A DNA stretch of 62,304 bases, from positions 1 to 62,304 of IMG/VR virus record IMGVR_UViG_3300022745_000002; one strand, 5' to 3'. This document shows, piece after piece, positions 7,701 to 21,587 of this stretch. Below the pieces are notes generated by a model that saw only the letters and a program-made list of their open reading frames with translations, had not been told where the DNA came from and made no database searches. Numbering within the stretch: position 1 is the stretch's first letter; each line of letters starts with the position of its first letter. This DNA comes from a virus. Position numbers and translations under genes: made by a program.

Positions 7701-9016
7701 AACCGGCCAACTACCAGATCGATGCGAGCGGCTTCATGTTCGAGCGCAACGCCTCGATGATGTTCGCCCGCATGGGCACCGGCAAGACACTGACCTACCT
7801 GATGACGTTGCAGGATCTCATCGAGGCCAAAGTGATCAAGCGCGCCATGATCGTGCCGCCGCTGCGCGTCGCCAACAATGTCTGGCGGCAGGAATGCGCG
7901 AAGTGGGAGATCCCGCTCACCATGTCGCTCTGCACGGGCGAGATGACGAAGAACCGACAACGCGCCGCCGTCGAGGCCGACACCAACTGCCTCATCGCGA
8001 ACTACGACATCATGGAGAAACTCCTTGAAGACGACACCCATGGCTGCGATGCGCTCGTCTTCGACGAACTCAGCAAGCTACGAAACCCTACGGGAAAGCG
8101 ACAGAAGGCGGCGCGCCGAGGAAAGTTCATCTGGCGTTCGGGCGGCACAGGTACTCCTGCACCGAACGGGCTCGGCAGCATATACGGAATGGCTCACGCC
8201 GTTGGGCTTGGACATCTTGTCGGGAGAAATCACGACAAGTGGCTGCGACAGTACTTCTATCCGACTGACTACGAGCAGCGGAACTGGGCGCCCTTCGGCG
8301 ACACGGAAGAAAAACTCGCGGCGCTGATCAAGCCCTACACCTACGTGCTCGAGGGCGACGCCGTCGAGTTGCCGCCGATCGTGCGGCCGCCGATGGAAAT
8401 CGAGCTGCCGCGATCGCTGCGCCGGATCTACGACGAGATGCGCGCCACGAGCCTGCTCAGCGACGAGGAGCTGGTGGTCGCGGGCTCGGCCGCCGTGCTG
8501 CGCGGCAAGCTGCGCCAGATCGCGTCGGGCTTCGTCTACCGCAGCGACCACACGGCGGCGAACTTCGATCCATACCGTCTCGAGATCCTGAAGGACATCG
8601 TCGATGAGATGCAGGGCGAGCCGATCATCATCGCGTACGAATTCATCGAGCAGCTCGCCATGATGCAGCGCACGTGGCCGGGCCTGCGATACATCGGGGG
8701 AGGATCCAGAGATGATGAAAGAACTATTGATGACTGGAACGCGGGTCGAGTGCCAGTGCTCGGCCTGCATCCAGCTTCAGCAGGACATGGACTTAATCTG
8801 CAAGCTGGCGGAAACACCGTTGCGTGGTGGCAGCTTCCCGACGACTTGGAGCTCTACGATCAGCTCATTGGCCGATTGGTACGAAGAGGGCAGGCTGGTG
8901 CTGCCGTCTACTCCTACGAGCCGATTGCACTAGATACGGTCGACGTCGCCGTGCGCCGCCGGGCGCATGACAAGACCCGCGTGCAGGACGGGCTCTGGGC
9001 GGCACTTAGGCGCTAG
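7697..9016 (+). CDS. SNF2/DEAD-like helicase
   Basis: Motif I MGTGKTL, motif II VFDELSKL, and C-terminal HGLNLQAGGN...QLIGRLVRRGQ. Confidence 0.9.
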   Translation: MKPANYQIDASGFMFERNASMMFARMGTGKTLTYLMTLQDLIEAKVIKRAMIVPPLRVANNVWRQECAKWEIPLTMSLCTGEMTKNRQRAAVEADTNCLIANYDIMEKLLEDDTHGCDALVFDELSKLRNPTGKRQKAARRGKFIWRSGGTGTPAPNGLGSIYGMAHAVGLGHLVGRNHDKWLRQYFYPTDYEQRNWAPFGDTEEKLAALIKPYTYVLEGDAVELPPIVRPPMEIELPRSLRRIYDEMRATSLLSDEELVVAGSAAVLRGKLRQIASGFVYRSDHTAANFDPYRLEILKDIVDEMQGEPIIIAYEFIEQLAMMQRTWPGLRYIGGGSRDDERTIDDWNAGRVPVLGLHPASAGHGLNLQAGGNTVAWWQLPDDLELYDQLIGRLVRRGQAGAAVYSYEPIALDTVDVAVRRRAHDKTRVQDGLWAALRR

Positions 9017-9054
9017 AACGCAATAAAATTACCCGGATTTTTCCACAAGCCGGG

Positions 9055-9083
9055 TTGACTTAGGTGGGCCACTAACTCATAAA
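9055..9083 (+). promoter_or_regulatory. Early promoter cassette A (TTGACT-N17-CATAAA with a conserved spacer)
   Basis: TTGACTTAGGTGGGCCACTAACTCATAAA. Four near-identical copies exist in the window. Confidence 0.6.
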
Positions 9084-9124
9084 GCTCCTGCGACAACATC
9101 GTCGCTGATTGAAGGAGCTTCCCA

Positions 9125-9325
9125 ATGGCTATCAAGGCAAAGAAACAACCCGCCAAGTACGCGGTCGGCGACAAGGTCCGTATCCTCCACGCGGGCGGCA
9201 AGACCGTCTCGGACACCGTGTGGGAGATCACCGACCTGTTCGGCGGCTTCCGCTGCCTCATCAAGGAGGCGGGCACCGACTACGCTGAACAGGCCTTCGA
9301 CACCTCCATGATCCGGCCTGCGTAG
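9125..9325 (+). CDS. Hypothetical early leader protein (66 aa)
   Basis: Preceded by GGAGCTTCCCAATG and followed directly by the conserved hairpin element. Confidence 0.6.
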   Translation: MAIKAKKQPAKYAVGDKVRILHAGGKTVSDTVWEITDLFGGFRCLIKEAGTDYAEQAFDTSMIRPA

Positions 9326-9326
9326 C

Positions 9327-9387
9327 GGATCCTGCTGACTGGTGCCCTGTTCGCGGGGCGCCAGACACCAGCACCCGCTAGACAACC
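9327..9387 (+). repeat. Conserved intergenic hairpin element, copy 1 of 3
   Basis: GGATCCTGCTGACTGGTGCCCTGTTCGCGGGGCGCCAGACACCAGCACCCGCTAGACAACC. 9-bp GC stem, no U-tract. Near-identical to 11974.. and 13787... Confidence 0.9.
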
Positions 9388-9401
9388 TGAAGGAGTTTCC
9401 C

Positions 9402-9734
9402 ATGCCGAAGTCAAAGCCTGTCTACTCGTTCGATCGCTGCGAGCGCTACCAGAACTTCCTCCAGCAGCTGCGTGACGCGGGCGTCGTCATCGAGACCGTC
9501 TGGCAGGCTCGCAAGAACGGCGCGCCGGTCAGCGCGATGCGCGAGCAGTACCCCGACATCGAGTGCATCATGTTCCGGGGCCCGCACGTCAAGGTGCCCA
9601 TGGCGATCGTGACGCTGCACACGGGCGCCGGGGCCCCGGCCGATCCGAGGGAGATCGGCTTCAACCTGTTCTTCATCTCGCCGAACAACGCGTACGACAA
9701 CGATCTCGATACGATCGTCGGCAAGAAGCAATAA
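9402..9734 (+). CDS. Hypothetical early protein (110 aa)
   Basis: Preceded by GGAGTTTCCCATG. Internal ATG of the 9342 track ORF. Confidence 0.65.
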   Translation: MPKSKPVYSFDRCERYQNFLQQLRDAGVVIETVWQARKNGAPVSAMREQYPDIECIMFRGPHVKVPMAIVTLHTGAGAPADPREIGFNLFFISPNNAYDNDLDTIVGKKQ

Positions 9735-9753
9735 AATAATCCACAGGAAGGTG

Positions 9754-9782
9754 TTGACTTAGGTGGGACACTAACTCATAAC
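9754..9782 (+). promoter_or_regulatory. Early promoter cassette B
   Basis: TTGACTTAGGTGGGACACTAACTCATAAC, with AAAATAATCCACAG 7 nt upstream. Confidence 0.6.
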
Positions 9783-9812
9783 CGCCTTGTCAACACCTCA
9801 CAGGAGCTTCCC

Positions 9813-10289
9813 ATGCCGAACAAGTTCACCGCCATCGACCCGCAGGGTACCGTCCACAAGCGTACCAGCCAGAACCGCAGCTACGCCTTCACCGTCGTCG
9901 TCCTGTCGGGCGCCGCGATGCTGGAACGGGCTCGCCCCGACGCGGCCAAGATCAAGCAGCAGAATGACGCGAGCTGGGATCGCATCGAGAACGAGGCCAA
10001 GGGCATCTTCCCGAAGAGCGAGCAGTGGCGCGGCGAGAAGGCACTTGCGGGCTGGCAGGCCTTTTCCATCGAATGGATGCAGACGCACACGCGCGAGGGC
10101 GAGCTGGCCGAGGCGATTGCAAACGCCGAAAAGCGGTACGCTGCCCGCGTCGCGGGTGGCGCAGATCTCCGGTATCATAACGTGGGCTGGTGCTCGCGCC
10201 GCGATCTCGCCGAGAAGCTCGCCAACACCTATCGCGTCCACAACCACGAAGACGTGCGGATCCTTGAGGCCGTCAAGGTGGGAGGCTGA
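9813..10289 (+). CDS. Hypothetical early protein (158 aa)
   Basis: Preceded by GGAGCTTCCCATG. Non-biased composition. Confidence 0.7.
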   Translation: MPNKFTAIDPQGTVHKRTSQNRSYAFTVVVLSGAAMLERARPDAAKIKQQNDASWDRIENEAKGIFPKSEQWRGEKALAGWQAFSIEWMQTHTREGELAEAIANAEKRYAARVAGGADLRYHNVGWCSRRDLAEKLANTYRVHNHEDVRILEAVKVGG

Positions 10290-10290
10290 G

Positions 10291-10527
10291 ATGCCCCGCA
10301 CTGCCCCCGCCAAGGTGAACAAGGCCCTCAAGGCGGCCGGTCTCGAGGTCGAGATCGTCCGGGGCAACGGCTACTACTACTTCGTCGGCCTGCCCGGCAC
10401 GCCCTACGCGGGCGACGAGATCAGGTCTATCTACGCCAACAGCCTGCTCGGCTACTCGACCGAAGAAGTCGTTCGGCACGTCCGCGACGAGCTCGCCCGC
10501 ATCAACGCCAAGTGCTGGAATTTTTGA
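10291..10527 (+). CDS. Hypothetical early protein (78 aa)
   Basis: ATG 1 nt after the preceding stop. Tail of the 9787 track ORF. Confidence 0.6.
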   Translation: MPRTAPAKVNKALKAAGLEVEIVRGNGYYYFVGLPGTPYAGDEIRSIYANSLLGYSTEEVVRHVRDELARINAKCWNF

Positions 10528-10528
10528 C

Positions 10529-10738
10529 ATGACCGCTACCACCGATTTCGGCGTCGACATCCTTTACCCCGAACGGCGCCGCGTGCCCTGCACGGTGATC
10601 AAGAGCTGGTACGCCGACGCGATCGCCAACAAGGAGATCGTGCACGAGGATGGCGTCCCGCATACCAACTGGCTGCACATGGCGCAGGCCCTGCACGACG
10701 AAGGCCTGATCACGCTCAAGGGTGGGAGGCTCGCATGA
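10529..10738 (+). CDS. Hypothetical early protein (69 aa)
   Basis: Tightly packed in the operon. Confidence 0.55.
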   Translation: MTATTDFGVDILYPERRRVPCTVIKSWYADAIANKEIVHEDGVPHTNWLHMAQALHDEGLITLKGGRLA

Positions 10739-10926
10739 GCTACTACTTCGCCCGCCTCAACCGGAACCACGACGGCGAGATCCAGCCGGGCGTCAGGGTC
10801 ATGAAGGCTCTGGCGACCGAGATCGCGGGGCCGCCCACGCGGTACGCGGAAGAAGTGTCCCGTCACGCCGACCTCCCGGCCGCCATGACCGAGGTCCGGC
10901 GCCTCAACGAACAGGAGATGTCATGA
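10735..10926 (+). CDS. Hypothetical early protein (63 aa)
   Basis: ATGA start/stop overlap with the preceding gene. Confidence 0.5.
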   Translation: MSYYFARLNRNHDGEIQPGVRVMKALATEIAGPPTRYAEEVSRHADLPAAMTEVRRLNEQEMS

Positions 10927-11147
10927 AGATCTACCATCAGGGCGCCGCGATCCGGGGCGCCTGCCAGATCCCCTACAAGGGCTACGTGCTCAGCATCAGC
11001 AACAGCCTGCTCGACCATGGCGAGATCGCCGTGCTCGCGCCGGACGGTACCTACCCGATCGACGGGCTTCCCGGCACCGTCGAGGGGATCATGGAGGCCA
11101 AGCAGAAGATCGATCGCCTCGTGCGTCGCCGGGAGCGCGTGTCGTGA
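10923..11147 (+). CDS. Hypothetical early protein (74 aa)
   Basis: ATGA overlap. Tail of the 10722 track ORF. Confidence 0.55.
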   Translation: MKIYHQGAAIRGACQIPYKGYVLSISNSLLDHGEIAVLAPDGTYPIDGLPGTVEGIMEAKQKIDRLVRRRERVS

Positions 11148-11503
11148 GCACCGTCTTCTTCGCCATTCGCCAGATCTCAACCGGGCACTTCATGCCGAGC
11201 TACAGCTCGCGCAAGGGCCGGGGTGGCTACACGCACGACGAGCCGCAGCCGCTGGCCAAGGTGCCGCCGCGCCTGTTCACCAAGCGCCACGTCGCCCAGC
11301 GCGTGTTGAACTACTGGCTGAAGGGCAGCATCACGCAGCACTTCAGCCGCGTGCACACGCTCGAGGGGCCGGACGATCACGAGTACCTGAACGTCACAAA
11401 AATCCCGCATCGCCGGGCCGAAGACATGGAAGTCGTCGCGATCTTCTTGACCGCATGGCAGATGACGCCAAGCGGCTGCCTGTCATTCGAGGTGAAGACA
11501 TGA
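11144..11503 (+). CDS. Hypothetical early protein (119 aa)
   Basis: GTGA overlap with the preceding gene. Confidence 0.55.
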   Translation: MSTVFFAIRQISTGHFMPSYSSRKGRGGYTHDEPQPLAKVPPRLFTKRHVAQRVLNYWLKGSITQHFSRVHTLEGPDDHEYLNVTKIPHRRAEDMEVVAIFLTAWQMTPSGCLSFEVKT

Positions 11504-11667
11504 ACAAGCGTCAGCGCCGCCAACGTGAGCACTTGTCGCGGCTGTACCCGATCCCGGCGAAGTACGACATCAGGAAGCCCAGCCGCAGCAAGCGGGCCCG
11601 GGGCAAGATCCGCGCGGCCGTCCTCGGCGCCGGGCTGAACCACCGGGGCCGGAACCCCGAAAAATAA
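11500..11667 (+). CDS. Small basic hypothetical protein (55 aa)
   Basis: ATGA overlap. Ends in the AAATAA of the next promoter cassette. Arg/Lys-rich, so coding status is uncertain. Confidence 0.35.
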   Translation: MNKRQRRQREHLSRLYPIPAKYDIRKPSRSKRARGKIRAAVLGAGLNHRGRNPEK

Positions 11668-11681
11668 TCCACAGACCCTTA

Positions 11682-11710
11682 TTGACTTAGGTGGGCCGCT
11701 ACGGCAAAAC
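11682..11710 (+). promoter_or_regulatory. Early promoter cassette C
   Basis: TTGACTTAGGTGGGCCGCTACGGCAAAAC, with AAAATAATCCACAG upstream. Confidence 0.55.
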
Positions 11711-11749
11711 CCTCCTACGGCAATACCGCCGGACTTCAAGGAGCTTCCC

Positions 11750-11971
11750 ATGGCCGTCAAGTTCACCCCCGCCAACCTCCGCACCATCACCCAGCACGGC
11801 GAACTGGCCTGCCTCAAGGCGATCTACCGCAACCGGGTCATCGGCGAAGGCGGCAACACCATCGGCGGCGGCGACACCCGCCTCGGCGACAACCTCTGCA
11901 ACGCTGGCGAGAAGATCGTTGCCCGCGACGGCATCGTCCTCAAGGACCGAAAGGATCTCGACCGCTGGTAA
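11750..11971 (+). CDS. Hypothetical early leader protein (73 aa)
   Basis: Preceded by GGAGCTTCCCATG and followed by hairpin copy 2. Confidence 0.6.
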   Translation: MAVKFTPANLRTITQHGELACLKAIYRNRVIGEGGNTIGGGDTRLGDNLCNAGEKIVARDGIVLKDRKDLDRW

Positions 11972-11973
11972 GT

Positions 11974-12032
11974 GGATCCTGCTGACTGACGCCCTCACGG
12001 GGGCGCCAGACACCAGCACCCGCTGGACAACC
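11974..12032 (+). repeat. Conserved intergenic hairpin element, copy 2 of 3
   Basis: GGATCCTGCTGACTGACGCCCTCACGGGGGCGCCAGACACCAGCACCCGCTGGACAACC. Confidence 0.9.
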
Positions 12033-12050
12033 ACCACAGAGGAGTTTCCC

Positions 12051-12326
12051 ATGACCAACATCGTAGACCGTATCGGCGCCCTCAAGGCCCAGATCGCCCC
12101 GTTGGAAAAGCAGCTGAAGAAGCTGCAGGACGAGCTCAAGGCACGCGGCGCTGGCAACTACGAGGGCGTCATGTACGACGCCAACGTGTCGATCGGCACG
12201 CGCAGCCAGCTCGACATGGACGCTGTCCGTGCCAAGCTGACGCCCCAGTTCATGGTGGCACACACCACCGAAACCGAGGTCGTGACGCTTCGCATCACCG
12301 CCAAGAAGCTCGCGATCGCGGCCTGA
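12051..12326 (+). CDS. Hypothetical early protein with an N-terminal coiled coil (91 aa)
   Basis: Preceded by GGAGTTTCCCATG. Confidence 0.65.
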   Translation: MTNIVDRIGALKAQIAPLEKQLKKLQDELKARGAGNYEGVMYDANVSIGTRSQLDMDAVRAKLTPQFMVAHTTETEVVTLRITAKKLAIAA

Positions 12327-12329
12327 ACG

Positions 12330-12524
12330 ATGGAAGAGTTCAACAACAACAACAAAGTCATCCGTCTCCAGCAGTTGGAGACGGCCCTGCACGGCATGCT
12401 CAAGGGTGTTTTTGGTCGCGGTATTGAAGGCGGCCCACCCAAGACCTGCCCCGCTGATCGCGTGATCGCCAGCCTGCGGGCCGAGATCGAGCTGATCAAC
12501 TATTACTTCAACGAAATGAAGTGA
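12330..12524 (+). CDS. Hypothetical early protein (64 aa)
   Basis: Packed in the operon. Composition is not GC-artefact-like. Confidence 0.55.
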   Translation: MEEFNNNNKVIRLQQLETALHGMLKGVFGRGIEGGPPKTCPADRVIASLRAEIELINYYFNEMK

Positions 12525-12527
12525 CAC

Positions 12528-12716
12528 ATGGCCAAGAAGATCGAAATCGATCTGGCGCTGTTCTTCCAGATGCGCGACGCGCTCGTGACCGCCGACATGG
12601 TGCTGACCAAGCATCGCCTTGCGGGCACCGACCAAAACCCGCACGGCGTGCGGGATCTCGTGAGCTCGGCGGCATTTGCCGTCGAGCGCTTCAACATCGA
12701 ATGGGAGCCGACCTGA
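12528..12716 (+). CDS. Hypothetical early protein (62 aa)
   Basis: Packed in the operon. Confidence 0.55.
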   Translation: MAKKIEIDLALFFQMRDALVTADMVLTKHRLAGTDQNPHGVRDLVSSAAFAVERFNIEWEPT

Positions 12717-13225
12717 TGCGCCACCTCCTCGCCCTGATGGCCGCTACGGTTTCCGTAGCGGCCTGCGCGCCCAGCCCCGAGCGCCTCAACGAGGCACAGG
12801 GCGACCTGTTGCGCCGCGCCTATCACCTGCAGCCCGCTGCCATGACGGCCGCCTCCGACAGCGTCTACGCCGACCTGCGCGGCGGCTGGGGCGAACGCGG
12901 CGCACCTGCCCGCCCGCCGCTGCCCGGCGTCACGATCATCTACCTCGACCTCGATGCCGACACGTTCGAGATGGCCCGGACCGCGAACGCCAAGTGGATC
13001 TATGGCGGCGAACCGGTCCAGCCGAAGTCGATCACCAACGGCTTCGTGCTGAACGTCTACAACGTCTGCATCGTGTACCAAGTCCGCGTCGGCGACGTCG
13101 GCCGCAGGCATGACGGCCTGCCGCTGTTCATCGTGACGCCGCGCATCCATGCCGACGTGCGCGAGCACGAGACCCGGCACTGTCATGGCCAGAGCCACGA
13201 CGCCAACAACGTGTGGCTGCCATGA
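12716..13225 (+). CDS. Predicted lipoprotein with an HExxH motif
   Basis: MRHLLALMAATVSVAAC is a signal peptide plus lipobox (VAAC). REHETRHCHGQSHD near the C-terminus contains H-E-x-x-H. Confidence 0.7.
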   Translation: MRHLLALMAATVSVAACAPSPERLNEAQGDLLRRAYHLQPAAMTAASDSVYADLRGGWGERGAPARPPLPGVTIIYLDLDADTFEMARTANAKWIYGGEPVQPKSITNGFVLNVYNVCIVYQVRVGDVGRRHDGLPLFIVTPRIHADVREHETRHCHGQSHDANNVWLP

Positions 13226-13563
13226 AGGAAATTTTCGTCATCCACCTCGCCGTCGTGGTCAAACAGGACGGGCCGATGCACTTCGCGGAGAACGTGTCCT
13301 TCGCCTCGGAAAGCCGCGAGGAGCTCGAGGCGCTGGCAGTGCGCGTCAACGAGCTGAACGACACGTACGGCCAGCTCTTCGACGGTTTCGAGCCCATTAC
13401 CCTGCTCGGCACGCCGCTTGCGCAGAACGGCACGGTCGACGAGATGGCGATCCACCTCGAAGACATCATCAAGAACGGCGAGACGCGCTTTGCCGAGCAG
13501 ACGGGACAACAGATCCCCGACACGGCGAGCGAGCTCGAGCGCATTCGTCGGGGTGGAAAATAA
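13222..13563 (+). CDS. Hypothetical early protein (113 aa)
   Basis: ATGA overlap with the lipoprotein gene. Acidic, balanced composition. Confidence 0.65.
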   Translation: MKEIFVIHLAVVVKQDGPMHFAENVSFASESREELEALAVRVNELNDTYGQLFDGFEPITLLGTPLAQNGTVDEMAIHLEDIIKNGETRFAEQTGQQIPDTASELERIRRGGK

Positions 13564-13585
13564 TCCACAGAAACCCCTTGCGGGC

Positions 13586-13614
13586 CTGAGTTAGGTGTGT
13601 CACTAACGCCTTGC
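13586..13614 (+). promoter_or_regulatory. Variant promoter cassette D (box TTAGGTGTGTCACTAAC, weak -35)
   Basis: AAAATAATCCACAG upstream and GGAGCTTCCCATG downstream. The -35 and -10 hexamers are poor. Confidence 0.35.
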
Positions 13615-13647
13615 GGCAATCCTGCCGCGCACCACTAGGAGCTTCCC

Positions 13648-13785
13648 ATGATCGTTCTTCGCTACACCATCAACGGAGCCAAGTTTCGCCGTCGCTACCC
13701 GGCATCCGAATGGCTGCTCGCCCACACCCGCGCGGCGGTCCTGCGCGATAACGGCGTCACGGTGACGATCACCGAGACCGAGTAA
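13648..13785 (+). CDS. Hypothetical early leader protein (45 aa, not in the ORF track)
   Basis: GGAGCTTCCCATG start context. Stop lies 1 nt before hairpin copy 3. Same layout as the 9125 and 11750 leader ORFs. Confidence 0.5.
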   Translation: MIVLRYTINGAKFRRRYPASEWLLAHTRAAVLRDNGVTVTITETE

Positions 13786-13786
13786 C

Positions 13787-13845
13787 GGATCCTGCTGACT
13801 GGCGCCCTGTTCGCGGGGCGCCAGACACCAGCACCCGCTGGAACC
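13787..13845 (+). repeat. Conserved intergenic hairpin element, copy 3 of 3
   Basis: GGATCCTGCTGACTGGCGCCCTGTTCGCGGGGCGCCAGACACCAGCACCCGCTGGAACC. Confidence 0.9.
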
Positions 13846-13871
13846 TGACAACCACCACTAGGAGCTTCTCA

Positions 13872-14666
13872 ATGTCCATCCTCGATACCGTTCTCTCCGA
13901 CGACCAGATCCGCCGCCTCGCCCCGTCGGTGTTCGCCGACCATGCCAGCCCGGTCTGCAAGGAAACCTACAGCTACCTGCCGACCTACCCGATCATCGAG
14001 CACCTGCGCGATCGCGGGATGGTCGTGACGCAGGTCCGCGAGGGCAAGAAGCGCGCGGCCAGCGGCCAGCTCTACGCCATGCACGAGGTGCGCATGCGCA
14101 AGGCCGACGACGTCTACGGCCGCCAGACCGGCGACCTCGGCGGCGTCACGCCCCAGATCGTGCTGCTGAACAGCCACGACAAGTCGACCTCGGCCACGGC
14201 ACTGGCGGGCATGCTGCGCTCGCTCTGCCACAACGGCATGTACTGGGCCGACCACTCGTTCGGCTTCAAGGCCGTGCACTACAAGATGGGCATGGAGCAG
14301 GTGCTCGACGGCATCGCCGCCGTGTCTGACCGCTTCGGCGAGATGATCGACAACGTCGAGCGCTGGAGCAAGATCCAGCTCACCAACGCCCAGCGCCTGC
14401 AGTTCGCCGAGCGTGCGCTCGAGCTCCGGGGCACCGCGCTCGCGGTCGATCCCGCCAATCTGCTGGTGGCGCCGCGCGAGGCCGATGTCGGCATGGATCT
14501 CTGGAAGACCTACAACGTGGTGCAGGAGAACCTGACCCACGGCGGCATCGCTGCCCAGAACAAGATGGGCAAGTGGCGCTCGCTGCGCCCGATCAAGGCG
14601 CTGAAGGTCGACAGCGACTTCAACCGCAAGCTCTGGGGCGTCGCCAACGAGCTGGTCGTCGCCTGA
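13872..14666 (+). CDS. DUF932-family protein (phage/plasmid-associated)
   Basis: LLNSHDKSTSA...LRSLCHNGM resembles the NSHDGSSA...R.vC.NG signature of DUF932. Confidence 0.8.
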   Translation: MSILDTVLSDDQIRRLAPSVFADHASPVCKETYSYLPTYPIIEHLRDRGMVVTQVREGKKRAASGQLYAMHEVRMRKADDVYGRQTGDLGGVTPQIVLLNSHDKSTSATALAGMLRSLCHNGMYWADHSFGFKAVHYKMGMEQVLDGIAAVSDRFGEMIDNVERWSKIQLTNAQRLQFAERALELRGTALAVDPANLLVAPREADVGMDLWKTYNVVQENLTHGGIAAQNKMGKWRSLRPIKALKVDSDFNRKLWGVANELVVA

Positions 14667-14676
14667 TCGTCACCGG

Positions 14677-14711
14677 CCGGGCTGCCGCGAGGTAGCCCGG
14701 TCTTCTTCCTT
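14677..14711 (+). terminator. Intrinsic-terminator-like hairpin
   Basis: CCGGGCT-10 nt-AGCCCGG followed by TCTTCTTCCTT. Confidence 0.5.
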
Positions 14712-14728
14712 CGACTGAGGAGAATTGA

Positions 14729-15019
14729 ATGTACGTGATCGAGCAAAAACTGATCGGAACGGGCGCGCAACTTATCGCGTTGCCACTGGGCTCGACGCTG
14801 GTCGGCGCTCATGGCAATGGCCGTGACATCGTCGTGGTCTACCGGCGCCCGGCCGGTATCGCGCCGACGTACGAACATCATCGCGTGCTGGCGGTGCCTT
14901 GCGGGGAGACCTTCGACACGGCCCCCGACGAGCCGTTCAGGCTGCTCGGCATCGATCATTTCATTCGGGCCGACGGCGAGCCGGTTTACGTATTCGAGAT
15001 TGGCGCGCCGCAAGGCTGA
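14729..15019 (+). CDS. Hypothetical protein (96 aa)
   Basis: GAGGAG ribosome-binding site 7 nt upstream. Confidence 0.6.
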   Translation: MYVIEQKLIGTGAQLIALPLGSTLVGAHGNGRDIVVVYRRPAGIAPTYEHHRVLAVPCGETFDTAPDEPFRLLGIDHFIRADGEPVYVFEIGAPQG

Positions 15020-15090
15020 CGCCGAGAGACGCTGGTCGTCGGTGCCGGGAAGCTCCCGCGATCGGCGTCTCGAATTTTTGGGAAACTTAA

Positions 15091-15363
15091 ATGTCTACAC
15101 GTAATGATCCCGTCGAAATTTTGGTAGCCGCAGCACTGAGCGCGCGCGGCTTTACTTTTGATCGCGAAATAGTCGCGCCGAACGGTTGTCGCCCTGATTT
15201 CTACGTGCGTGAATTGGATCTCTTCATAGAGGTCAAACAATTCAGCACTCCGCGAACGGCAGCCCAGATACACTCACTCACTAACATAGTAGTCGTGCAG
15301 GGTATGCCCGCAGCCAGAGCTTTCGACATGCTTCTCAACGCGACTGTGCGGCGCGCCGTATGA
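15091..15363 (+). CDS. Small PD-(D/E)XK-like nuclease-fold protein in an AT-richer segment
   Basis: RPDFYVRELDLFIEVKQ gives D...(D/E)-x-K spacing. Local GC is visibly lower than the flanks. Confidence 0.55.
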   Translation: MSTRNDPVEILVAAALSARGFTFDREIVAPNGCRPDFYVRELDLFIEVKQFSTPRTAAQIHSLTNIVVVQGMPAARAFDMLLNATVRRAV

Positions 15364-15650
15364 CCGTCGTCATCGGCAACGACTGGTACGTGATGTTCAA
15401 CGACCCGCTGTTCCGGCAGGGCTGGGTCGAGCACGCGCTCGGGATCCCGCGCGATCAGGCGCTGGTCGATCGCGACCTGTTCTACTCCTACGGCCGCATG
15501 CTGGCCGCCGAGAGCAAGCTGCCGCTGCCTGCCGTGGCGACGCACCTGACCGAGGAGATGCGCCGCGTCGTGCATGCCGTGCCGTCCTTCGTCGAGCTGA
15601 TGGTCTACAGCAACTACGCCGAGAAGATCGGCCTGAAGAGGAACATGTGA
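15360..15650 (+). CDS. Hypothetical protein (96 aa)
   Basis: ATGA overlap. Confidence 0.6.
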   Translation: MTVVIGNDWYVMFNDPLFRQGWVEHALGIPRDQALVDRDLFYSYGRMLAAESKLPLPAVATHLTEEMRRVVHAVPSFVELMVYSNYAEKIGLKRNM

Positions 15651-15970
15651 TGACGACCAAGGAAGAGTATCTGGCGCTTGCGGAACGCTGCGAGCGGGAG
15701 GAGCCGGGCGCTGATTTGGATTCGGCCATTTGGAAAGCGCTATTCCCCGCCGAGCCTTCCGCCAATTGGGAAGATTACACATCCAGCCTCGACGCCGCCG
15801 TGACGCTGGTGCCAAACGGAAATGGGTACATCGCGGGCAAGAAAAGCATCGACACTGCTGACGGCGTTGTGTTCGGTTCCGAGCGCACCGTGCGCGTGAC
15901 CGCATCAACTCCCGCACTCGCTCTCTGCGCCGCCGCCCTTCGCGCCCGCGCTGCATTGGTGAAGCCATGA
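15647..15970 (+). CDS. Hypothetical protein (107 aa)
   Basis: GTGATGA overlap with the preceding gene. Confidence 0.6.
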   Translation: MMTTKEEYLALAERCEREEPGADLDSAIWKALFPAEPSANWEDYTSSLDAAVTLVPNGNGYIAGKKSIDTADGVVFGSERTVRVTASTPALALCAAALRARAALVKP

Positions 15971-16245
15971 CAGAAGCATCTGATGCAGTGGAAGCTGCGC
16001 ACAAGTTGATTCAAACAACGGAGCGCATGGCAAACGAGGCCGTCATGGATATGCATTTATGGAACGTGCATTCAAATGCGGCGCTTACCGTCGCCCGCGC
16101 CTTCCTCGCACAGCGGGAGGCGTTGGAAGAGATAGCAAGACAGGAATTGACGGCCGACATGGGCGTTGACGATCAACTAGGCGGCGATTTTGAAGGCGCT
16201 TACGACTGGATGATCGAACGTGCCCGCGCCGCCCTGCTCGCATGA
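15967..16245 (+). CDS. Hypothetical protein (92 aa)
   Basis: ATGA overlap. Confidence 0.6.
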   Translation: MTEASDAVEAAHKLIQTTERMANEAVMDMHLWNVHSNAALTVARAFLAQREALEEIARQELTADMGVDDQLGGDFEGAYDWMIERARAALLA

Positions 16246-16284
16246 TCGAGATCCAGATCGATTTCGAAAGGAAGAAGGGACAAC

Positions 16285-16584
16285 ATGCCTCGACGTAACA
16301 CACCCCAGCTCGCCGCCCGGCAGCGGGCCAGCAACCTCGAGTTCAACGTGCGGCACGCGACCACGATCGCGCACGTGCGTGGACGCCTGCTCGCGCATGC
16401 CGCGCGCTGCCGCCGGGAGAAGGGCTACAGGGCACTCGACGGCCAGAACCGTGTCGATTGCGCGATCGGCCTAGCCGGGCTCGCCAGCAAGCTCGGTGAC
16501 CGCGTGCGCCGGCGCATGTCGATCCACTTCTACCTCGACCGCGCGATCGAGATCGTCAACCTGCTCGACCGGAGGAATGCGTGA
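16285..16584 (+). CDS. Hypothetical basic protein (99 aa)
   Basis: GGAAGAAGGG ribosome-binding site upstream of the ATG. Confidence 0.5.
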   Translation: MPRRNTPQLAARQRASNLEFNVRHATTIAHVRGRLLAHAARCRREKGYRALDGQNRVDCAIGLAGLASKLGDRVRRRMSIHFYLDRAIEIVNLLDRRNA

Positions 16585-16778
16585 GCGCGACGGTCAAACA
16601 CCAACGTGGCGCAGACATTGGCGCCGAAGGTCGCACGCTTTGCGGCGTGTATTGGCGCATCTTTGATGCCGCATCAGCTGCACCACCATTTGGACTGCTG
16701 CTGGCACCAACCAAGGACGCGGTCACGTGCAAGTCGTGCCGTCGCATCATCGATCGCGTGAAGAAAGGAAAACCATGA
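16581..16778 (+). CDS. Small Cys-containing protein (65 aa)
   Basis: GTGA overlap. TCKSCRRI motif. Confidence 0.5.
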   Translation: MSATVKHQRGADIGAEGRTLCGVYWRIFDAASAAPPFGLLLAPTKDAVTCKSCRRIIDRVKKGKP

Positions 16779-17104
16779 GCACGATCATCACACGCCCGGC
16801 CTTCGAAGGGCCGCACATACTCGCGACGACGGCACCGACGCTGCTTGCGATGAACGAGGCCTGCCGCCAGATGGATCTCGCGCAGCAGGTGCTGCAGAAC
16901 TACGTCGATGCCAAGCGGCAAGGCAAGATCATCAACTGCTTCGTCTGGCGCACGGCGGTCGAGCTGACGGGCATGGGCAAGGTGTGGAAGGACAAGCGCG
17001 GGCACCGCACCTTGCATCGGGTGCGCGTGACTTATGGCGACTGGGCCGCGCTCGACGCGCTGATCGAGGAGGCGCTTGCACATTACGCGGCGCAGAAGTC
17101 ATGA
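16775..17104 (+). CDS. Hypothetical protein (109 aa)
   Basis: ATGA overlap. Tail of the 16727 track ORF. Confidence 0.6.
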   Translation: MSTIITRPAFEGPHILATTAPTLLAMNEACRQMDLAQQVLQNYVDAKRQGKIINCFVWRTAVELTGMGKVWKDKRGHRTLHRVRVTYGDWAALDALIEEALAHYAAQKS

Positions 17105-17298
17105 GCGAGTGGGTCTTAATCGTCATCCTGATCGGCGGCTACAACGGCGCGCCCTCGGTGAGCGTCGTGCGCCTGCCGACGCAGCAGGCCTGCATCGACG
17201 TCGGCGACGCGACGCGGCACCTGTGGTCGATGATCGTGTCGCGTACGCAGTACACCTGCGTCGAGATCAAGCAGACATCACCGAGGAGAACACCATGA
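17101..17298 (+). CDS. Small protein with an N-terminal hydrophobic segment (65 aa)
   Basis: ATGA overlap. Begins MSEWVLIVILIGG. Confidence 0.5.
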   Translation: MSEWVLIVILIGGYNGAPSVSVVRLPTQQACIDVGDATRHLWSMIVSRTQYTCVEIKQTSPRRTP

Positions 17299-17612
17299 AC
17301 GCCGACGACCGCCGCCCAATGAACCCGTGGATGCCGATGACATCGGCGATCGACAAAAAGCACATCGGCAAGCTGCTCGAGGAACTCGGTGAAGCCGTGG
17401 CCGCCGCCAGCCGGTGCCTGATACAGGGTATCGACGAGAAGGAACCCGTCACCGGCAAGCCGAACAAAGAGTGGCTCGAGGACGCGTTTGCCGACGTCCT
17501 CGCCAACATTGCTCTCGTGACCGAGCACTTCAGGCTCGATCAAAATCGCATGCGCATACGCTGCGACCGCAAGGTAGAGATGCTGCGCACGTGGCATGCG
17601 ATGCTGTCATGA
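17295..17612 (+). CDS. MazG-like all-alpha NTP pyrophosphohydrolase candidate
   Basis: KLLEELGEAVAA...EWLEDAFADVLANIALV resembles the EExGE...E..D metal-binding helices. Family assignment is by eye only. Confidence 0.6.
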   Translation: MNADDRRPMNPWMPMTSAIDKKHIGKLLEELGEAVAAASRCLIQGIDEKEPVTGKPNKEWLEDAFADVLANIALVTEHFRLDQNRMRIRCDRKVEMLRTWHAMLS

Positions 17613-17728
17613 GCGAGTATTTCATTCAGGTCTTCCTGTTCTGCGCGTTCTTCTGCGCGGGCTTCCTGATCGGGTTGCGCATGGGCTTCAAGGTCGCGGC
17701 ACGTGCGGTGTTGGAGAGGAGCAACTAG
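17609..17728 (+). CDS. Small membrane protein (39 aa)
   Basis: ATGA overlap. FIQVFLFCAFFCAGFLIGL is a transmembrane segment. Confidence 0.4.
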   Translation: MSEYFIQVFLFCAFFCAGFLIGLRMGFKVAARAVLERSN

Positions 17729-17730
17729 CG

Positions 17731-17928
17731 ATGTCAGCCAACGACAATATGGAACATATCGGCGTTGCCAAGACAGTCGCGATCGCGCAGCTCGTCAATA
17801 TCGTGCGCATCGAGCTGCCGTTCGCCGATAGCGCCGAGGCCAAGAAGGTTTACGACGAACTGGTCGAGCGCGCGAAGACACACGGCAAGGTGTCGCTCAC
17901 TTTTTCGTCGCCCTCGGAGGTGTCATGA
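17731..17928 (+). CDS. Hypothetical protein (65 aa)
   Basis: Packed in the operon. Confidence 0.55.
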   Translation: MSANDNMEHIGVAKTVAIAQLVNIVRIELPFADSAEAKKVYDELVERAKTHGKVSLTFSSPSEVS

Positions 17929-18182
17929 GCAAGGTAATCCACTGCGGCTGGGGTATGTCGAACGGTCGGCCGATATGTTGCTCGACGCGAGAGCCGGAAA
18001 CGACGCTGGCACCTGAGCACATCACGTGCCTTCGGTGTCTCGCGCAGCTGGCGCGCGGCGCGGAACGCGAAGCCGAGCGGTTGTTCGCGCGCGCCAACAA
18101 TGAGTTGAGCGAGGCGAATGACTGGCGCCGCCGGATGCGTCGCGTGACGGCGGCGCGCGCGGTAGTGGAAAGGCACAAGTAA
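17925..18182 (+). CDS. Cys-rich small protein (85 aa)
   Basis: ATGA overlap. Motifs HCGWG, ICCST and CLRC. Confidence 0.55.
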   Translation: MSKVIHCGWGMSNGRPICCSTREPETTLAPEHITCLRCLAQLARGAEREAERLFARANNELSEANDWRRRMRRVTAARAVVERHK

Positions 18183-18183
18183 A

Positions 18184-18486
18184 ATGCTGAACTACAACGG
18201 CATGCAAATCGTCATCGACGATAAGGTGCTCGCCAGCACCAGCGAGTTCTTGTTCCCGCCGTCACGGCATCGCAGCAGGCGGATCCACAAGAAGCTGGTG
18301 AAGCGCTTCGGCGGCGAGGTGCGCATGAAGCCTGCGTGCTGGAAGATTGGCGACAAGCTCTACATACATTCGACCATATGGTCGGAGCTGCAGAAGCATG
18401 TGCATCGATCACCGATTATTTCGTACGAATGTTTGCAAGAGATGCCGCGCGTCTATTGGAGTGCCGCGCAGGATATCACCAGATGA
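18184..18486 (+). CDS. Hypothetical protein (100 aa)
   Basis: Starts 2 nt after the previous stop. AT-richer codons. Confidence 0.55.
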   Translation: MLNYNGMQIVIDDKVLASTSEFLFPPSRHRSRRIHKKLVKRFGGEVRMKPACWKIGDKLYIHSTIWSELQKHVHRSPIISYECLQEMPRVYWSAAQDITR

Positions 18487-18755
18487 TCATTCACGAGCTC
18501 ACCGACGACGGCGTCAAGATCGGCAACGGTTACAGCGGCACGACGCGCTGCGGCGCGATCGGCACGATGGTCATGCGCGATGGGCGCCGCCACATCCAGA
18601 CGGAGAGCAAGGCGCTGTTCGCCCTGTCGCTGCTCACGCGCATGCACGAGGAGGGGCCGCTCGAGAAACGCATGATGCTCGAGCTCGAGCCGACGACGTG
18701 CAAGCACTGCGTTCAGCTCGCGCAACGCCGTCGGCGCCGATCGGTTGCGAGGTAA
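18483..18755 (+). CDS. Hypothetical protein (90 aa)
   Basis: ATGA overlap. Tail of the 18336 track ORF. Confidence 0.55.
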   Translation: MIIHELTDDGVKIGNGYSGTTRCGAIGTMVMRDGRRHIQTESKALFALSLLTRMHEEGPLEKRMMLELEPTTCKHCVQLAQRRRRRSVAR

Positions 18756-18789
18756 TTGACCGTGCGCTGGAGATGCGCCTAGATAGCAA

Positions 18790-18828
18790 AACGGCCCGCC
18801 CTCTCGCGAGTGCGGGCCGTCCTACTTC
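18790..18828 (+). terminator. Terminator-like hairpin upstream of the primase-helicase gene
   Basis: ACGGCCCGC-12 nt-GCGGGCCGT followed by CCTACTTCC. Preceded by TTGACC-N17/18-(C)TAGAT(A) at 18755-18784. Confidence 0.45.
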
Positions 18829-18843
18829 CGCCCACCACAGGCA

Positions 18844-21246
18844 GTGGCCCAACCCGCAGTCGGAGACTACAAATTGAAAGCCGCAGATTTCCTAGCGCAC
18901 ATCTTCGCCGATTGCAACGGCGTCCCCGTCACGGCGACCAAGGCCGACGGCTATAACTCGCGGCGCTGGTCGCCCGGCATCGACCCGCCCGAGGGCGTGA
19001 CCTACTTCTGCATCTCGACGGTGCGCGACGTGAAGCGCTCGCGCGTGCTCGGCCGCCAGACCGAGGATCTCGTGCTCACCTACGTGATCGTGCTCGACGA
19101 TGTGGGCACCAAGGTTCCACGGGAAACAATCCGGTTAAAACCCTCTTATATCCTCGAAAGCTCGGCCGGGAATTTCCAGTACGGCTACGTGCTCGCCGAC
19201 GGCATCGACCCGGCGCGCGCGGCGGCGGTGATCGAGGCGCTGGCGGCGGCGGGCTACACCGACAAGGGGTCGAAGCGGGCCGATCGCATCATGCGCGTGC
19301 CGGGCTCCCTGAACGACAAGTACGACCCGCCCTTCGTGTCGCGGATCGTCGAGTGGAGCCCCGGGGTCGACTACACCCTGTCGGAGCTCTGCGTCGGCTT
19401 CGACGTCGTGCCGACCGATACGGCGGCGCAGGGTGCGCTTCAGCCGCTGGCCGAGGGCGAGGTCGACCCGGTCTTCGAATGGCTGCAGGCGCACGGTCAC
19501 GTGCTGGGCGGCCCCAACGCCCGGGGCTGGTACCCGGTGCGCTGCCCACAGGAGGCCCAGCACAGCGGCGAGGTCGACCACGGCACGGACTACATGCCGG
19601 GCAACCCGGGCGCCTTTGTCTGTCTCCATGGCCACTGCCAGACCTACCGCACCGCCCAGCTGCGGTCGTGGATCCTGCAGCAGGATCCGGCGGCCGAGGT
19701 CGGCGTCATCGACCGGCAGCAGGTGGCACTGGTCGGGCAGAGACTGGGGGCGGCCCTCGGATTGGATCTATCGGCCGCCCCGTCGCAAGATCGCCTTCGG
19801 CCAACCGAAGGGTCCGGCGACAGCGGCAGCCTAGCTGCCCTTTACGCGGCCCTGCAAGCGGCGGCGGGCCCCGGTACCATCTTCCACCGCCCGGCACCGC
19901 CCGAGGCCACCCAAAGCCTCTCCCAGCGCCTTGCAGCGGCCATCGGCGCGATCTTCCTCGACCCGTCCCTCCTCCCCGACCCCGACACCCTGCCGAACGG
20001 CAACGCGGCCCGCCATCAGGCGGTAACTGCACCGCGAGTGCATCATGTCATGAGCCTGATCGGCATGACGGCCCGGCAGAACGTGCTCACGAACGCGATC
20101 GAGTGCAAATTCTCGTCGTTCGAGGGGTATGATTTCAGTACCGATGCATCGGAAGGGGCTGTCGACGTGCTCGTCCACGCCTGTGTTCGATGCGGCATGC
20201 GTGGTGCGGAGGCGGTTCGGCAGGCCCTTGCAAATTATGCATCGGAACGGCGCTACAGCCCTGTCGCGGAATGGATCCTGTCTGCACCGTGGGATGGTGT
20301 CAGCCGTCTTCCGGCGCTGTACGACACGATCAAAATGCGCGATCCGTCGATGGATGGGTGGAAACAGGTCGCCATCCGACGCTGGTGCATCCAAACCATT
20401 GCTGCGATTAGAAACTGGGAGCCGGGCTTTGCGCCCGAGAGCGTCGGCCATGTGCTGGTGCTGCAGGGCGAGCAGGGTGCAGGCAAGTCGTTCTGGGCCG
20501 GGTCGCTGATGCCCGCCCAGTGGCGCACGCTGGGCATGTCGCTGAAGCTCGACCACGGCGAGCGCGACGCGGTGAAGCGGGCCACCTCCACGCCGATCAC
20601 CGAGCTGGCCGAGGTCGACGGGTCGTTCCGGCGATCGGACACGGCGTCGCTCAAGAACTTCCTCACGGCGCCGGTCGACATCTACCGGCCGCCGTATGGC
20701 CGTATCGAGCTCTCCAAGCCGCGTGGGACGTCGTTCATCGCCTCGGTGAACCCGGAAGGGTTCCTGCTCGACCAGACTGGCGAGCGGCGCTTCTGGCCGC
20801 TGGCGGTGGAGAGCTGCAACTACGAGCACGGCATCGACATGCAGCAGTTCTGGGCCGAGGTCTGGACCCTGTACGAGGCGGGCGAGATCTTCTGGCTCGA
20901 GAAGGGCCGGGAGCAGCACCTGCATGCGCTGGCGTCGGCGGCGCACCATGCCGACACCGACGTCACTTTCATCGTCGAGGATCTGGCCGTGCGGCGACAG
21001 GCCTTTTGCGACCAGAAGTTGTGGGTGCACGCCAACGCCAGAGAGCTCGCCCGGCACTACGGCGTGAAGGGTCTGCCGAGCGTTTATCAGGATCTTGCGG
21101 AGGCCCTGAGACGCGAAAAGTACCGGGGTGCAGTGGTGAAGGGAAAAAGGGGGTTTTTCCTGCCGCCGTTCGAACAATCGCTGTCGGCCGCGCAGATCGC
21201 TGGGTTCAAGGTCATTAGCGGGGGTGCACTGGACGAAAATAAATAG
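18844..21246 (+). CDS. Primase-helicase (VirE/D5-like, with a zinc-binding primase region and a P-loop NTPase)
   Basis: CPQEAQHSGEVDHGTDYMPGNPGAFVCLHGHC zinc motif. Walker A LQGEQGAGKS. 800 aa. Confidence 0.9.
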   Translation: MAQPAVGDYKLKAADFLAHIFADCNGVPVTATKADGYNSRRWSPGIDPPEGVTYFCISTVRDVKRSRVLGRQTEDLVLTYVIVLDDVGTKVPRETIRLKPSYILESSAGNFQYGYVLADGIDPARAAAVIEALAAAGYTDKGSKRADRIMRVPGSLNDKYDPPFVSRIVEWSPGVDYTLSELCVGFDVVPTDTAAQGALQPLAEGEVDPVFEWLQAHGHVLGGPNARGWYPVRCPQEAQHSGEVDHGTDYMPGNPGAFVCLHGHCQTYRTAQLRSWILQQDPAAEVGVIDRQQVALVGQRLGAALGLDLSAAPSQDRLRPTEGSGDSGSLAALYAALQAAAGPGTIFHRPAPPEATQSLSQRLAAAIGAIFLDPSLLPDPDTLPNGNAARHQAVTAPRVHHVMSLIGMTARQNVLTNAIECKFSSFEGYDFSTDASEGAVDVLVHACVRCGMRGAEAVRQALANYASERRYSPVAEWILSAPWDGVSRLPALYDTIKMRDPSMDGWKQVAIRRWCIQTIAAIRNWEPGFAPESVGHVLVLQGEQGAGKSFWAGSLMPAQWRTLGMSLKLDHGERDAVKRATSTPITELAEVDGSFRRSDTASLKNFLTAPVDIYRPPYGRIELSKPRGTSFIASVNPEGFLLDQTGERRFWPLAVESCNYEHGIDMQQFWAEVWTLYEAGEIFWLEKGREQHLHALASAAHHADTDVTFIVEDLAVRRQAFCDQKLWVHANARELARHYGVKGLPSVYQDLAEALRREKYRGAVVKGKRGFFLPPFEQSLSAAQIAGFKVISGGALDENK

Positions 21247-21249
21247 GCG

Positions 21250-21510: not shown

Positions 21511-21514
21511 GCAG

Positions 21515-21543: not shown

Positions 21544-21587
21544 GCTCACGCGACCAATCGGGCGCAACCACCACCACGGAGCTTCCC

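Follow-up and report, generated by a model that had tools for sequence, protein, structure and literature searches.

A repeated structured RNA in the early region of uncultivated 60-kb phages and its putative role as an RNase III-type processing and stability site

The early transcripts of phage T7 are made by the host polymerase, and nearly every T7 early gene is followed by an RNase III site, these sites having asymmetric internal loops. The hairpins of the Rhodobacter puf operon and the REP hairpins of malEFG are intercistronic stabilisers. A nut site consists by consensus of a boxA and a boxB hairpin whose conserved loop serves an N-type protein, and put RNA suppresses termination via the zinc-binding domain of the beta-prime subunit of RNA polymerase. 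The put RNA is ~70 nucleotides (nt) long and folds into two long bulged stem-loops in a V shape, with a triplex in stem I and no dedicated protein, and putR of HK022 lies ~270 nt from the PR start (PMC9378689). For E. coli RNase III (Ec-RNase III) the idealised substrate is 22 base pairs (bp), and internal irregularities lead to single-strand cuts that leave stabilising 3' hairpins (PMC3867540). The PeSLs (promoter-early stem-loops) of T4-like phages are stem-loop modules that flank small early open reading frames (ORFs) with a fast turnover, and they appear to mediate the insertion or replacement of these ORFs (PMC4122927), whilst in Pseudomonas phages promoter-proximal partial terminators with two modes of read-through are common (PMC10914365). 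Here we describe an element that can be set beside these systems, a rod-like RNA found three times in IMG/VR record IMGVR_UViG_3300022745_000002, positions 1 to 62,304, which is a complete phage genome of 62.3 kb and 64% GC and which, at its full length, is referred to below as the window.

The element is a cis-acting structured RNA in early polycistronic transcripts, and on the analysis given here we put the probability that it is an RNase III-type mRNA processing and stability site at roughly 0.37, a putative assignment that nevertheless fits better than its rivals. A preliminary description of this DNA, made from the sequence alone, had recognised three near-identical copies, and these were recovered where it had placed them, both by their repeated halves and by a covariance model. 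They are as follows.

9323-9381, + strand: element copy 1, with its rod at 9323-9380; covariance model score 76.3 bits, minimum free energy -36.8 kcal/mol, z -3.6
11970-12026, + strand: element copy 2; 67.4 bits, -26.2 kcal/mol, z -1.5
13783-13841, + strand: element copy 3; 75.4 bits, -32.6 kcal/mol, z -3.7

The 15-nt 5' half of the element, GGATCCTGCTGACTG, occurs exactly three times in the window, and the 21-nt 3' half likewise three times at no more than one mismatch, where shuffled sequences would be expected to give 0.00 occurrences; no fourth copy was found in the window with the covariance model of the family, by which the three + strand copies score 67-76 bits. The unit is ~58-62 nt long. 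Its extent as first described was right in the main, the boundaries needing to be moved: it starts 3-4 nt earlier, at or within a stop codon, and ends ~6 nt earlier.

Covariation and RNAalifold agree on a consensus that is a symmetric rod of 23-27 stacked layers. From base to tip it consists of helix P1 (3-6 layers), a 3x3 loop of AUC opposite CAC (3 layers), helix P2, which is CUG paired with CAG (3 layers), a 1x1 mismatch of any nucleotide opposite C (1 layer), and then P3, an internal loop, P4 and the apical loop, P3 to P4 together making 13-14 layers. P1 has a core of 3 bp that can be extended to 6 bp and abuts or takes in the stop codon; in copy 1 it is UAGCGG/CCGCUA and takes in the UAG stop of the preceding ORF. 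P3 is 2-3 bp long and is followed by a symmetric internal loop, either A x A, UU x UU or UGA x GAU, beyond which P4 has 7-11 GC-rich pairs whose sequence is free and is mostly capped by a tetraloop, the apical loops being UUCG, CACG, CGCG, UCCG, GCAA or 6-10 nt long. Every internal loop is symmetric (1x1, 2x2 or 3x3), and the arm between P2 and the loop measures 17-18 layers throughout, despite the differing sequences of P4. In copy 3 the parts are laid out as below.

13783-13788, 13789-13791, 13792-13794, 13796-13798 and 13799-13809, + strand: 5' strands of P1, the AUC loop, P2, P3 and P4, respectively
13810-13813, + strand: UUCG apical loop
13814-13824, 13826-13827, 13829-13831, 13832-13834 and 13835-13840, + strand: 3' strands of P4, P3, P2, the CAC loop and P1, respectively

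The alignment from which this structure was derived comprises ten distinct copies from seven or eight related phages, and its support was measured on those same sequences. Paired positions are filled by true pairs in 83% of cells, compared with 67% in column shuffles, none of 500 of which reached the observed value, and with 35-60% when the partners were slid against each other. Ten pairs are changed on both sides. RNAalifold, when run without a supplied structure, returned the same P1 to P4, with 8 of 16 pairs compensatory. The most informative helix is P1, which appears as CGG/CCG, UAG/CUG, AAG/CUU, GUG/CAU and GUG/CAC; its pairs 4-60 and 5-59 (alignment numbering) occur as five and three pair types with 0-1 unpaired cells. 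In P4, pairs swap between G-C and C-G among the copies, and lower down the pair 14-50 is either U-A or C-G, whilst 16-48 is A x A, G-C or A-U. The covariation of P1 implies that the full-length rod is under selection and not the apical GC hairpin alone.

These data alter the fold that had been drawn for the element. The preliminary description gave a 9-bp stem with an 8-nt loop, in place of which folding gives an 11-bp apical stem with a UUCG tetraloop in copies 1 and 3, and it extended this stem through an asymmetric loop, A opposite ACAC, into a GCUG/CAGC stem, a register that is ruled out by the covariation at 14-50 and 16-48 in favour of a symmetric one. The lower register that is supported runs A x A, UG/CA, C x C, CUG/CAG, the 3x3 loop and then basal P1 down to the stop codon. 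Finer points of the earlier drawing were borne out: copy 1 has the G:U pair ascribed to it, and copy 2 differs by a single mismatch (A x C) and by its loop, which is CACG where the others have UUCG. The stem of copy 2 is also shorter by one pair (10 layers). Sequence is conserved together with structure, at least 15 nt being invariant across the phages (GAUCCUG and CCAGCACC), and the AUC/CAC loop with its flanking pairs is invariant in eight of the ten copies. There are 11 G.U pairs on the + strand, compared with six A.C positions that would be G.U pairs on the other strand, and the family covariance model scores the window copies at 67-76 bits on the + strand against 26-34 bits on the - strand, both of which point to the element acting as a + strand RNA. 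Loops differ in length by numbers not divisible by three, which speaks against a coding role.

A second fold competes with the base of the rod. The motif GCUGG lies directly 3' of the rod in all copies except window copy 1, where it is GCUAG and the hairpin that it forms is weakened, and it is kept even where it falls outside P1 (L011, L013, L014b, L332a and L097b). It pairs with CCAGC, which holds the 3' strand of P2, to give a 5-bp hairpin II that abuts P3-P4 and excludes P2, with a loop of 4-13 nt containing the 3' strand of P1.

13828-13841, + strand: alternative 3' hairpin II of copy 3, CCAGC-ACCC-GCUGG, with counterparts at the matching position of copies 1 and 2

In constrained folding the rod and the two-hairpin state lie within 0.6 kcal/mol of each other in six of the ten copies, and the rod is favoured by 2-6 kcal/mol in the remainder; for copy 3 the difference, rod minus hairpin II, is -0.2 kcal/mol. 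The double pairing duty of CCAGC would freeze CCUG, CCAGC and GCUGG, and so explains much of the invariance of the sequence.

The relatives that carry the element were reached via homologues of the helicase encoded beside the first promoter-like cassette, graded at 47-89% identity. The preliminary description had named the absence of a homologous element from every relative as part of what would refute it, and such homologues were found in seven or eight related metagenomic phages whose helicases are 58-86% identical to that of the window: L008, L010 (cut by the contig end), L011 (which is the same contig as L346), L013, L014 (two copies), L097/L399 (two copies) and L332. Over the copies the family covariance model scores 49-76 bits. 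The copy in L008, at 14349-14406, again lies between a small ORF and a DUF932 gene. The covariance model found none but L346 among 59 pattern-matched IMG/VR loci and none but L399 among 63 loci with the gene that stands next to the element. Exact and degenerate DNA patterns searched against IMG/VR and metagenome contigs gave no copy, or one chance match in a terminase gene (L001); the pattern GATCCTG..CCAGCACCYGCTRG matched 35 IMG/VR stretches, L097 alone being real, and 120 stretches of genome contigs, all within coding regions, whilst a second IMG/VR pattern returned only L097 again and L346, and L392 and L393 added nothing to the family. GenBank phages have neither the element nor the protein of the gene that follows copy 2 (at 12051). 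An Rfam cmscan of 8900-14100 with E up to 10 gave just four noise matches of 13.6-21.2 bits, of which the single one that overlaps a copy covers only 24 nt of P4. The element is a structured RNA family that had not been catalogued before, with no Rfam match and no presence in GenBank phages.

Around this family there are structures that share its place. L332 has a weak variant (22.9 bits) with CCAAC/GUUGG at the place of hairpin II, and unrelated GC-rich rods of 21-25 layers occur in L330 (14547-14625), L012 (18085-18157), L010 (11733-11818) and L332 (L332b, 13742-13797); those of distant relatives keep the position in which a stop codon is followed by a rod, CA-rich sequence and a Shine-Dalgarno (SD) sequence. 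The rods of L330 and L012 are alike and may form a second family. A separate observation concerns L331, whose helicase is 58% identical to that of the window and which encodes a NusG-like protein (13942-14478) immediately ahead of its packaging genes, a hint that processive antitermination is of importance in the wider group.

The surroundings of the three copies in the window are given below, the first three entries being the genes referred to as leader ORFs.

9125-9325, + strand: leader ORF 1, 66 amino acids (aa), first gene after the promoter-like cassette at 9054
11750-11971, + strand: leader ORF 2, 73 aa, first gene after the promoter-like cassette at 11681
13648-13785, + strand: leader ORF 3, 45 aa, first gene after the promoter-like cassette at 13586
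9054-9094, + strand: promoter-like cassette, TTGACTTAGGTGGGCCACTAAC..CATAA(A/C); others at 9753-9793, 11681-11721, 13586-13607 (a variant) and 21514-21554
9382-9404, + strand: CA-rich spacer, AGGAGTTTCCC SD module and downstream ATG; equivalents at 12027-12053 and 13842-13874
14675-14712, + strand: 12-bp GC hairpin with a CU-rich tail, UUCUUCCUUC, directly 3' of the DUF932 gene and downstream of all copies
15026-15079, + strand: strong intrinsic-terminator-like hairpin with a U5 tract, inside the early operon and downstream of all copies

The placement described earlier was largely upheld. Each copy follows the stop codon of a 66-, 73- or 45-aa leader ORF with a gap of 1, 2 and 1 nt, respectively, up to its GGATCC, the leader ORFs are mutually unrelated by BLASTP, the next start codon comes 14-26 nt on as measured there (ATGs at 9402, 12051 and 13872), and a U-tract is absent at all three copies. 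A homologue of leader ORF 1 that is 53% identical stands directly before an element copy in L097/L399, and leader ORF 2 has a homologue in no relative examined. Across the family the stop codon lies 0-10 nt 5' of the AUC loop in 9 of 11 cases and is part of P1 in copy 1 and L014a, and 5-18 nt of CA-rich sequence separate the element from the SD sequence; the same layout of hairpin, CA-rich sequence and SD is found in the primary 5' untranslated regions (UTRs) of these phages. The window copies are 170-255 nt downstream of promoter-like cassettes or inferred transcription starts and all copies, relatives included, are 170-950 nt behind such a cassette, after the first or second ORF. The cassette is a putative promoter. 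It has AAAATAATCCACAG just upstream and an imperfect palindrome, TTAGGTGGGCCACTAA, in its spacer, and other palindromes stand at the same spot in relatives (GATAGTTGTGCCGTTATGGCATAACTATC in L332 and GGGGCCGTAACGGCCCC in L012), which looks like an operator that would co-evolve with a phage repressor. A translation-start module, (CCACCAC)-AGGAGCTTCCC-ATG, is found at eight genes at least (for example 9802-9840, 11739-11777 and 12040-12078). The ORFs that start at 9813 and 11750 have ~25 nt of their first codons in common, which suggests recombination junctions inside N-termini.

The early region in which all this takes place is highly plastic. Genes run on the + strand from 7.7 kb onward, and from 9 to 21 kb there is a series of small ORFs interspersed with the repeated cassette. 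Set against L008, L014, L332 and L011, the early region (9000-18800) is hyperplastic: even L008, with a helicase that is 86% identical, lacks homologues of most window ORFs between 9 and 18 kb, and recurrence is limited to the helicase, DUF932, the primase, the 91-aa gene at 12051 and a few more. In this region of fast turnover the element has been kept longer than nearly all ORFs.

How an RNase III-type site would work here can be set out step by step, every step being inferred, from the cleavage and its enzyme to the position of the cut and the direction in which it acts. The cut, by a host double-strand-specific endonuclease of the RNase III type, would fall about halfway along the rod, where the conserved 1x1 mismatch and P3 lie, with 9-12 layers between it and the base and 13-14 between it and the loop. 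If made in the 3' strand, it would leave a very stable P3-P4 hairpin at the end of the leader mRNA as a barrier to 3' exonucleases. The downstream mRNA would then begin with the CCAGC/GCUGG hairpin, formed by the 3' strand that the cut sets free, and this would recreate the hairpin, CA-rich spacer and SD layout of the primary 5' UTRs. The stability and expression of the cassette ORF would be uncoupled from those of the genes that follow it, and would differ from them.

We favour this RNase III-type site because selection on the whole rod, the constant symmetric arm, the near-central mismatch, the 3' hairpin and the dependence on a host factor fit it best. The rod of 23-27 layers is at or above the length of the idealised Ec-RNase III substrate; the pairs of P1 covary, and selection on P1 is what an RNase III-type substrate needs and a terminator or simple exonuclease barrier does not; and the copies lie between leader ORFs and downstream genes with no U tract, a placement that is intercistronic and not that of a terminator. 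Among the phages compared no phage protein has a pattern of presence and absence that matches the element, which points to host machinery, and the occurrence of unrelated rods of 21-25 layers at equivalent positions fits a reader of shape over sequence. The likeness to RNase III sites had been drawn in the preliminary description; what stands of it is a long, interrupted two-turn helix between early cistrons with no U tract, to which the covariation of P1 can be added, and what does not stand is the fold then drawn, and the loops are symmetric unlike those of T7. The lack of an asymmetric loop at the scissile site, such as T7 R1.1 has, is one of several points that weigh against processing by such an enzyme. 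The element is confined to promoter-proximal junctions, and T7 has sites after nearly every early gene; its 15 or more invariant nt exceed the sequence constraint usual for E. coli RNase III, of which the double duty of CCAGC could explain a part; P2 and hairpin II are invariant within the family and so, the weak L332 variant apart, have no support from covariation; and the covariation as a whole rests on ten sequences from seven or eight related phages and on a structure derived from them.

Of the alternatives that the preliminary description had listed, an antitermination site and a protein operator stay live, the former as a serious one since the element is upstream of two terminator-like sites. 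In a put- or nut-like process host RNA polymerase would be bound by the nascent RNA, possibly folded as two hairpins, and would then read through terminators farther along the early region; we regard this, the main rival, as a tentative reading. Its location is that of put, downstream of promoters and upstream of terminators: the window copies lie 170-255 nt behind a promoter-like cassette and just after the first ORF, which may be compared with putR of HK022, and transcription from each early promoter would meet one copy or more ahead of the hairpin (14675-14712) and the terminator (15026-15079), beyond which none of the ~12 genes at 15091-18755 has its own promoter cassette, the primase gene having a separate promoter-like site near 18759. 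L008 has the same order of element, DUF932, hairpin and terminator, its 15401-15469 being 89% identical to 15009-15078 of the window. It also suits antitermination that the conserved nucleotides are at the base or junction, with an upper stem free to vary, and that no phage protein partner was found. However, put consists of two long bulged stems with a triplex where the element is one rod with a 5-bp hairpin, the covariation of P1 favours a closed rod, unrelated rods in distant relatives would be odd for an RNA that fits a conserved surface of the polymerase, and the window has three copies where one would be enough. The variable apical loops leave no boxB-like protein site and no boxA-like sequence (GCUCUUUA) was seen, by which a lambda-type nut site is excluded. 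A bistable RNA device that works on host machinery in a manner new to phages, whether a put-like, protein-independent antiterminator of a new structural class or a switch set by the ribosome, is a possible reading that we would hold just as loosely; in the switch version, a possibility, a ribosome at the stop embedded in P1 would decide the fold, giving the rod if the leader is untranslated and P3-P4 with CCAGC/GCUGG if it is translated. That the element is instead a passive intercistronic stabiliser or insulator is doubtful. Uncut, it would block 3'-to-5' decay, shield the gap from Rho and RNase E and keep upstream sequence off the next translation start, in keeping with the very stable and mostly tetraloop-capped P4, with a general start design of GC hairpin, CA-rich spacer and SD that includes the 5' UTRs, and with the unrelated hairpins at equivalent sites in relatives; P4 alone would be enough for this, however, and the covariation of P1-P3, the constant arm, the invariant lower stem and GCUGG would go unexplained.

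It is unlikely that the element is in essence a recombination linker or cassette boundary, that is, homology shared, along with the repeated promoter and translation-start modules, for the insertion, swap and loss of small ORFs, which could act as DNA, and yet much of its surroundings looks as such a linker would predict, with PeSLs as a documented precedent (PMC4122927). The 3' end of a moron is a further likeness. In L008 and in many distant IMG/VR relatives the gene that follows copy 2 here (12051-12326) comes straight after a promoter, by which leader ORF 2 together with the element looks like an insertion. At the DUF932 locus the window and L008 have promoter, element and DUF932 in common and unrelated leader ORFs, the homology (87%) starting exactly at the element, the cassette is bounded by a 14-nt repeat, AGGAG(C/T)TTCCCATG, and most early ORFs have no homologue even in L008. 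On the other hand homology by itself needs neither a hairpin nor compensatory changes, and the + strand excess of G.U pairs and the + strand model scores point to RNA; moreover, whilst the repeat does flank swapped ORFs as PeSLs do, there is no fusion of stem-loop and promoter, no stem-loop standing before the cassettes. A PeSL-like role in recombination is supported as an evolutionary layer that is compatible with any molecular function. An operator for a host or phage RNA-binding protein that would control translation or decay of the neighbours seems quite improbable. The AUC/CAC loop and its flanks, invariant in most copies, are what such a protein might recognise, a symmetric rod would suit a dimer, and GGA occurs both in GCUGGA and in the SD; against this, no phage gene co-varies in presence with the element, the SD and start codon are outside it, L097b has a 1x1 loop in place of the 3x3 loop and the tail of copy 1 lacks GGA. 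Finally, a terminator is unlikely, and a leaky terminator, pause site or attenuator, which would give an abundant leader transcript and partial read-through, is very improbable: a GC-rich hairpin does come directly after the promoter-proximal ORF and L008 has UUU after P4, but nine of the ten copies are without a U tract, which window 15026-15079 clearly has, the tails are ACACCAGC or GAUCC, and a terminator scan does not list the copies. Furthermore P1-P3 pair up to ~20 nt beyond P4 and are under selection, so that the functional RNA extends past any point of termination at P4.

Several other ideas were considered and dropped. Stop-codon read-through or ribosome bypassing fails as the stop and the ATG are 79 nt apart in frames that do not meet, and each downstream gene has an SD and ATG of its own, and an H-type pseudoknot of P1 with the loop of hairpin II would have a connecting loop of 0 nt in most copies. 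A tRNA-like minihelix or RNase P substrate, suggested by RCCA after P3, is rejected as the CCA is paired in both folds; ARAGORN found only a true tRNA-Met elsewhere in the window, and the gene (CAT, 24582-24659) lies between the small terminase region and the late genes. A hammerhead-like CUGAUGA in some relatives has no GAAA core and no Rfam match, and an anti-SD role of the 5' UCCU would rest on just 4-5 bp and does not suit the GGAG-type SDs found in relatives. No significance attaches to GATC or BamHI sites, GATC being common genome-wide (589 sites), and an analogy with integron attC sites finds neither GTTRRRY/RYYYAAC cores nor an integrase among the proteins scanned.

The genome itself has few known kin. 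Megablast of the window against GenBank phages gave no match and there is no cultured relative, the best matches among GenBank phages being 44% for the large terminase and 36% for the helicase. It encodes a DNA polymerase, an exonuclease, an SNF2 helicase, a primase-helicase, a terminase and a portal, and no phage RNA polymerase was found among the proteins scanned. An identical direct repeat of 127 bp (1-127 and 62178-62304) is either a terminal repeat or an overlap of a circular assembly. Directly 3' of the primase-helicase gene, 21200-21590 has an AT-rich core flanked by at least five copies of GGGTGCA(C/G)TGGA in both orientations and looks like a replication origin with iterons; the ORF at 21588-22499 has a DUF6011 and a weak zinc-finger match. 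A protein of the Mom family, a DNA-modification family, adjoins the small terminase subunit (23036-23611 and 23623-24264), and diverged tandem-like repeats of 120-132 nt, 70-71% identical, are found at 43807-44181 and 44568-44852 inside a late ORF of 728 aa.

The leading idea of the preliminary description was reasonable and is unproven, and the element is most likely an RNA family of a familiar kind. It is kept in a clade of uncultivated 60-kb phages with a near-complete turnover of early genes, and in view of that turnover it is one of the few stable handles on early expression. It marks the boundaries of the exchange of small early ORFs and is therefore useful for annotating cassettes and for insulated multi-gene constructs. 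Were it an RNase III-type site it would extend the T7 paradigm to a distant GC-rich lineage, with one cut giving a 3' cap to one mRNA and a 5' cap to the next. Were it instead an RNA-only antiterminator or a translation-sensing switch, just one other kind of such element would be known from phages, and a switch set by translation would couple translation of the leader to read-through or to the fate of downstream early genes.

Amongst known systems the element is like the T7 sites R0.3, R0.5, R1, R1.1 and R1.3 in that these are related, interrupted hairpins of about two turns, present in several copies between early cistrons with no U tract. The T7 sites depend on a host enzyme and no phage protein, and a like dependence on the host is proposed here; in T7 a single-strand cut leaves the hairpin attached to the upstream mRNA, which it stabilises, and the same would be the case here. 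There is no sequence similarity between the two, and the element has symmetric loops and a competing 3' hairpin where the T7 sites have asymmetric loops. With putL and putR of HK022 it has in common that it is a cis RNA of ~60-70 nt, one per early unit, near the promoter or first gene and upstream of terminators, and that two stem-loops are possible, again with no relation in sequence. Like the puf operon and REP in malEFG it places a stable GC hairpin between cistrons, which can lengthen the life of the upstream message, but a stable stem is enough in those cases whereas the element also has a lower helix that is extended and conserved, loop nucleotides that do not vary and a second possible fold. 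PeSLs and lambdoid morons resemble it as short, repeated stem-loop modules that flank small ORFs in hyperplastic early regions; a PeSL, however, is a terminator-like stem-loop fused to an early promoter, whilst the element is fused to an SD/ATG module apart from the promoter cassette and has covariation at the level of RNA well beyond that of a simple terminator stem.

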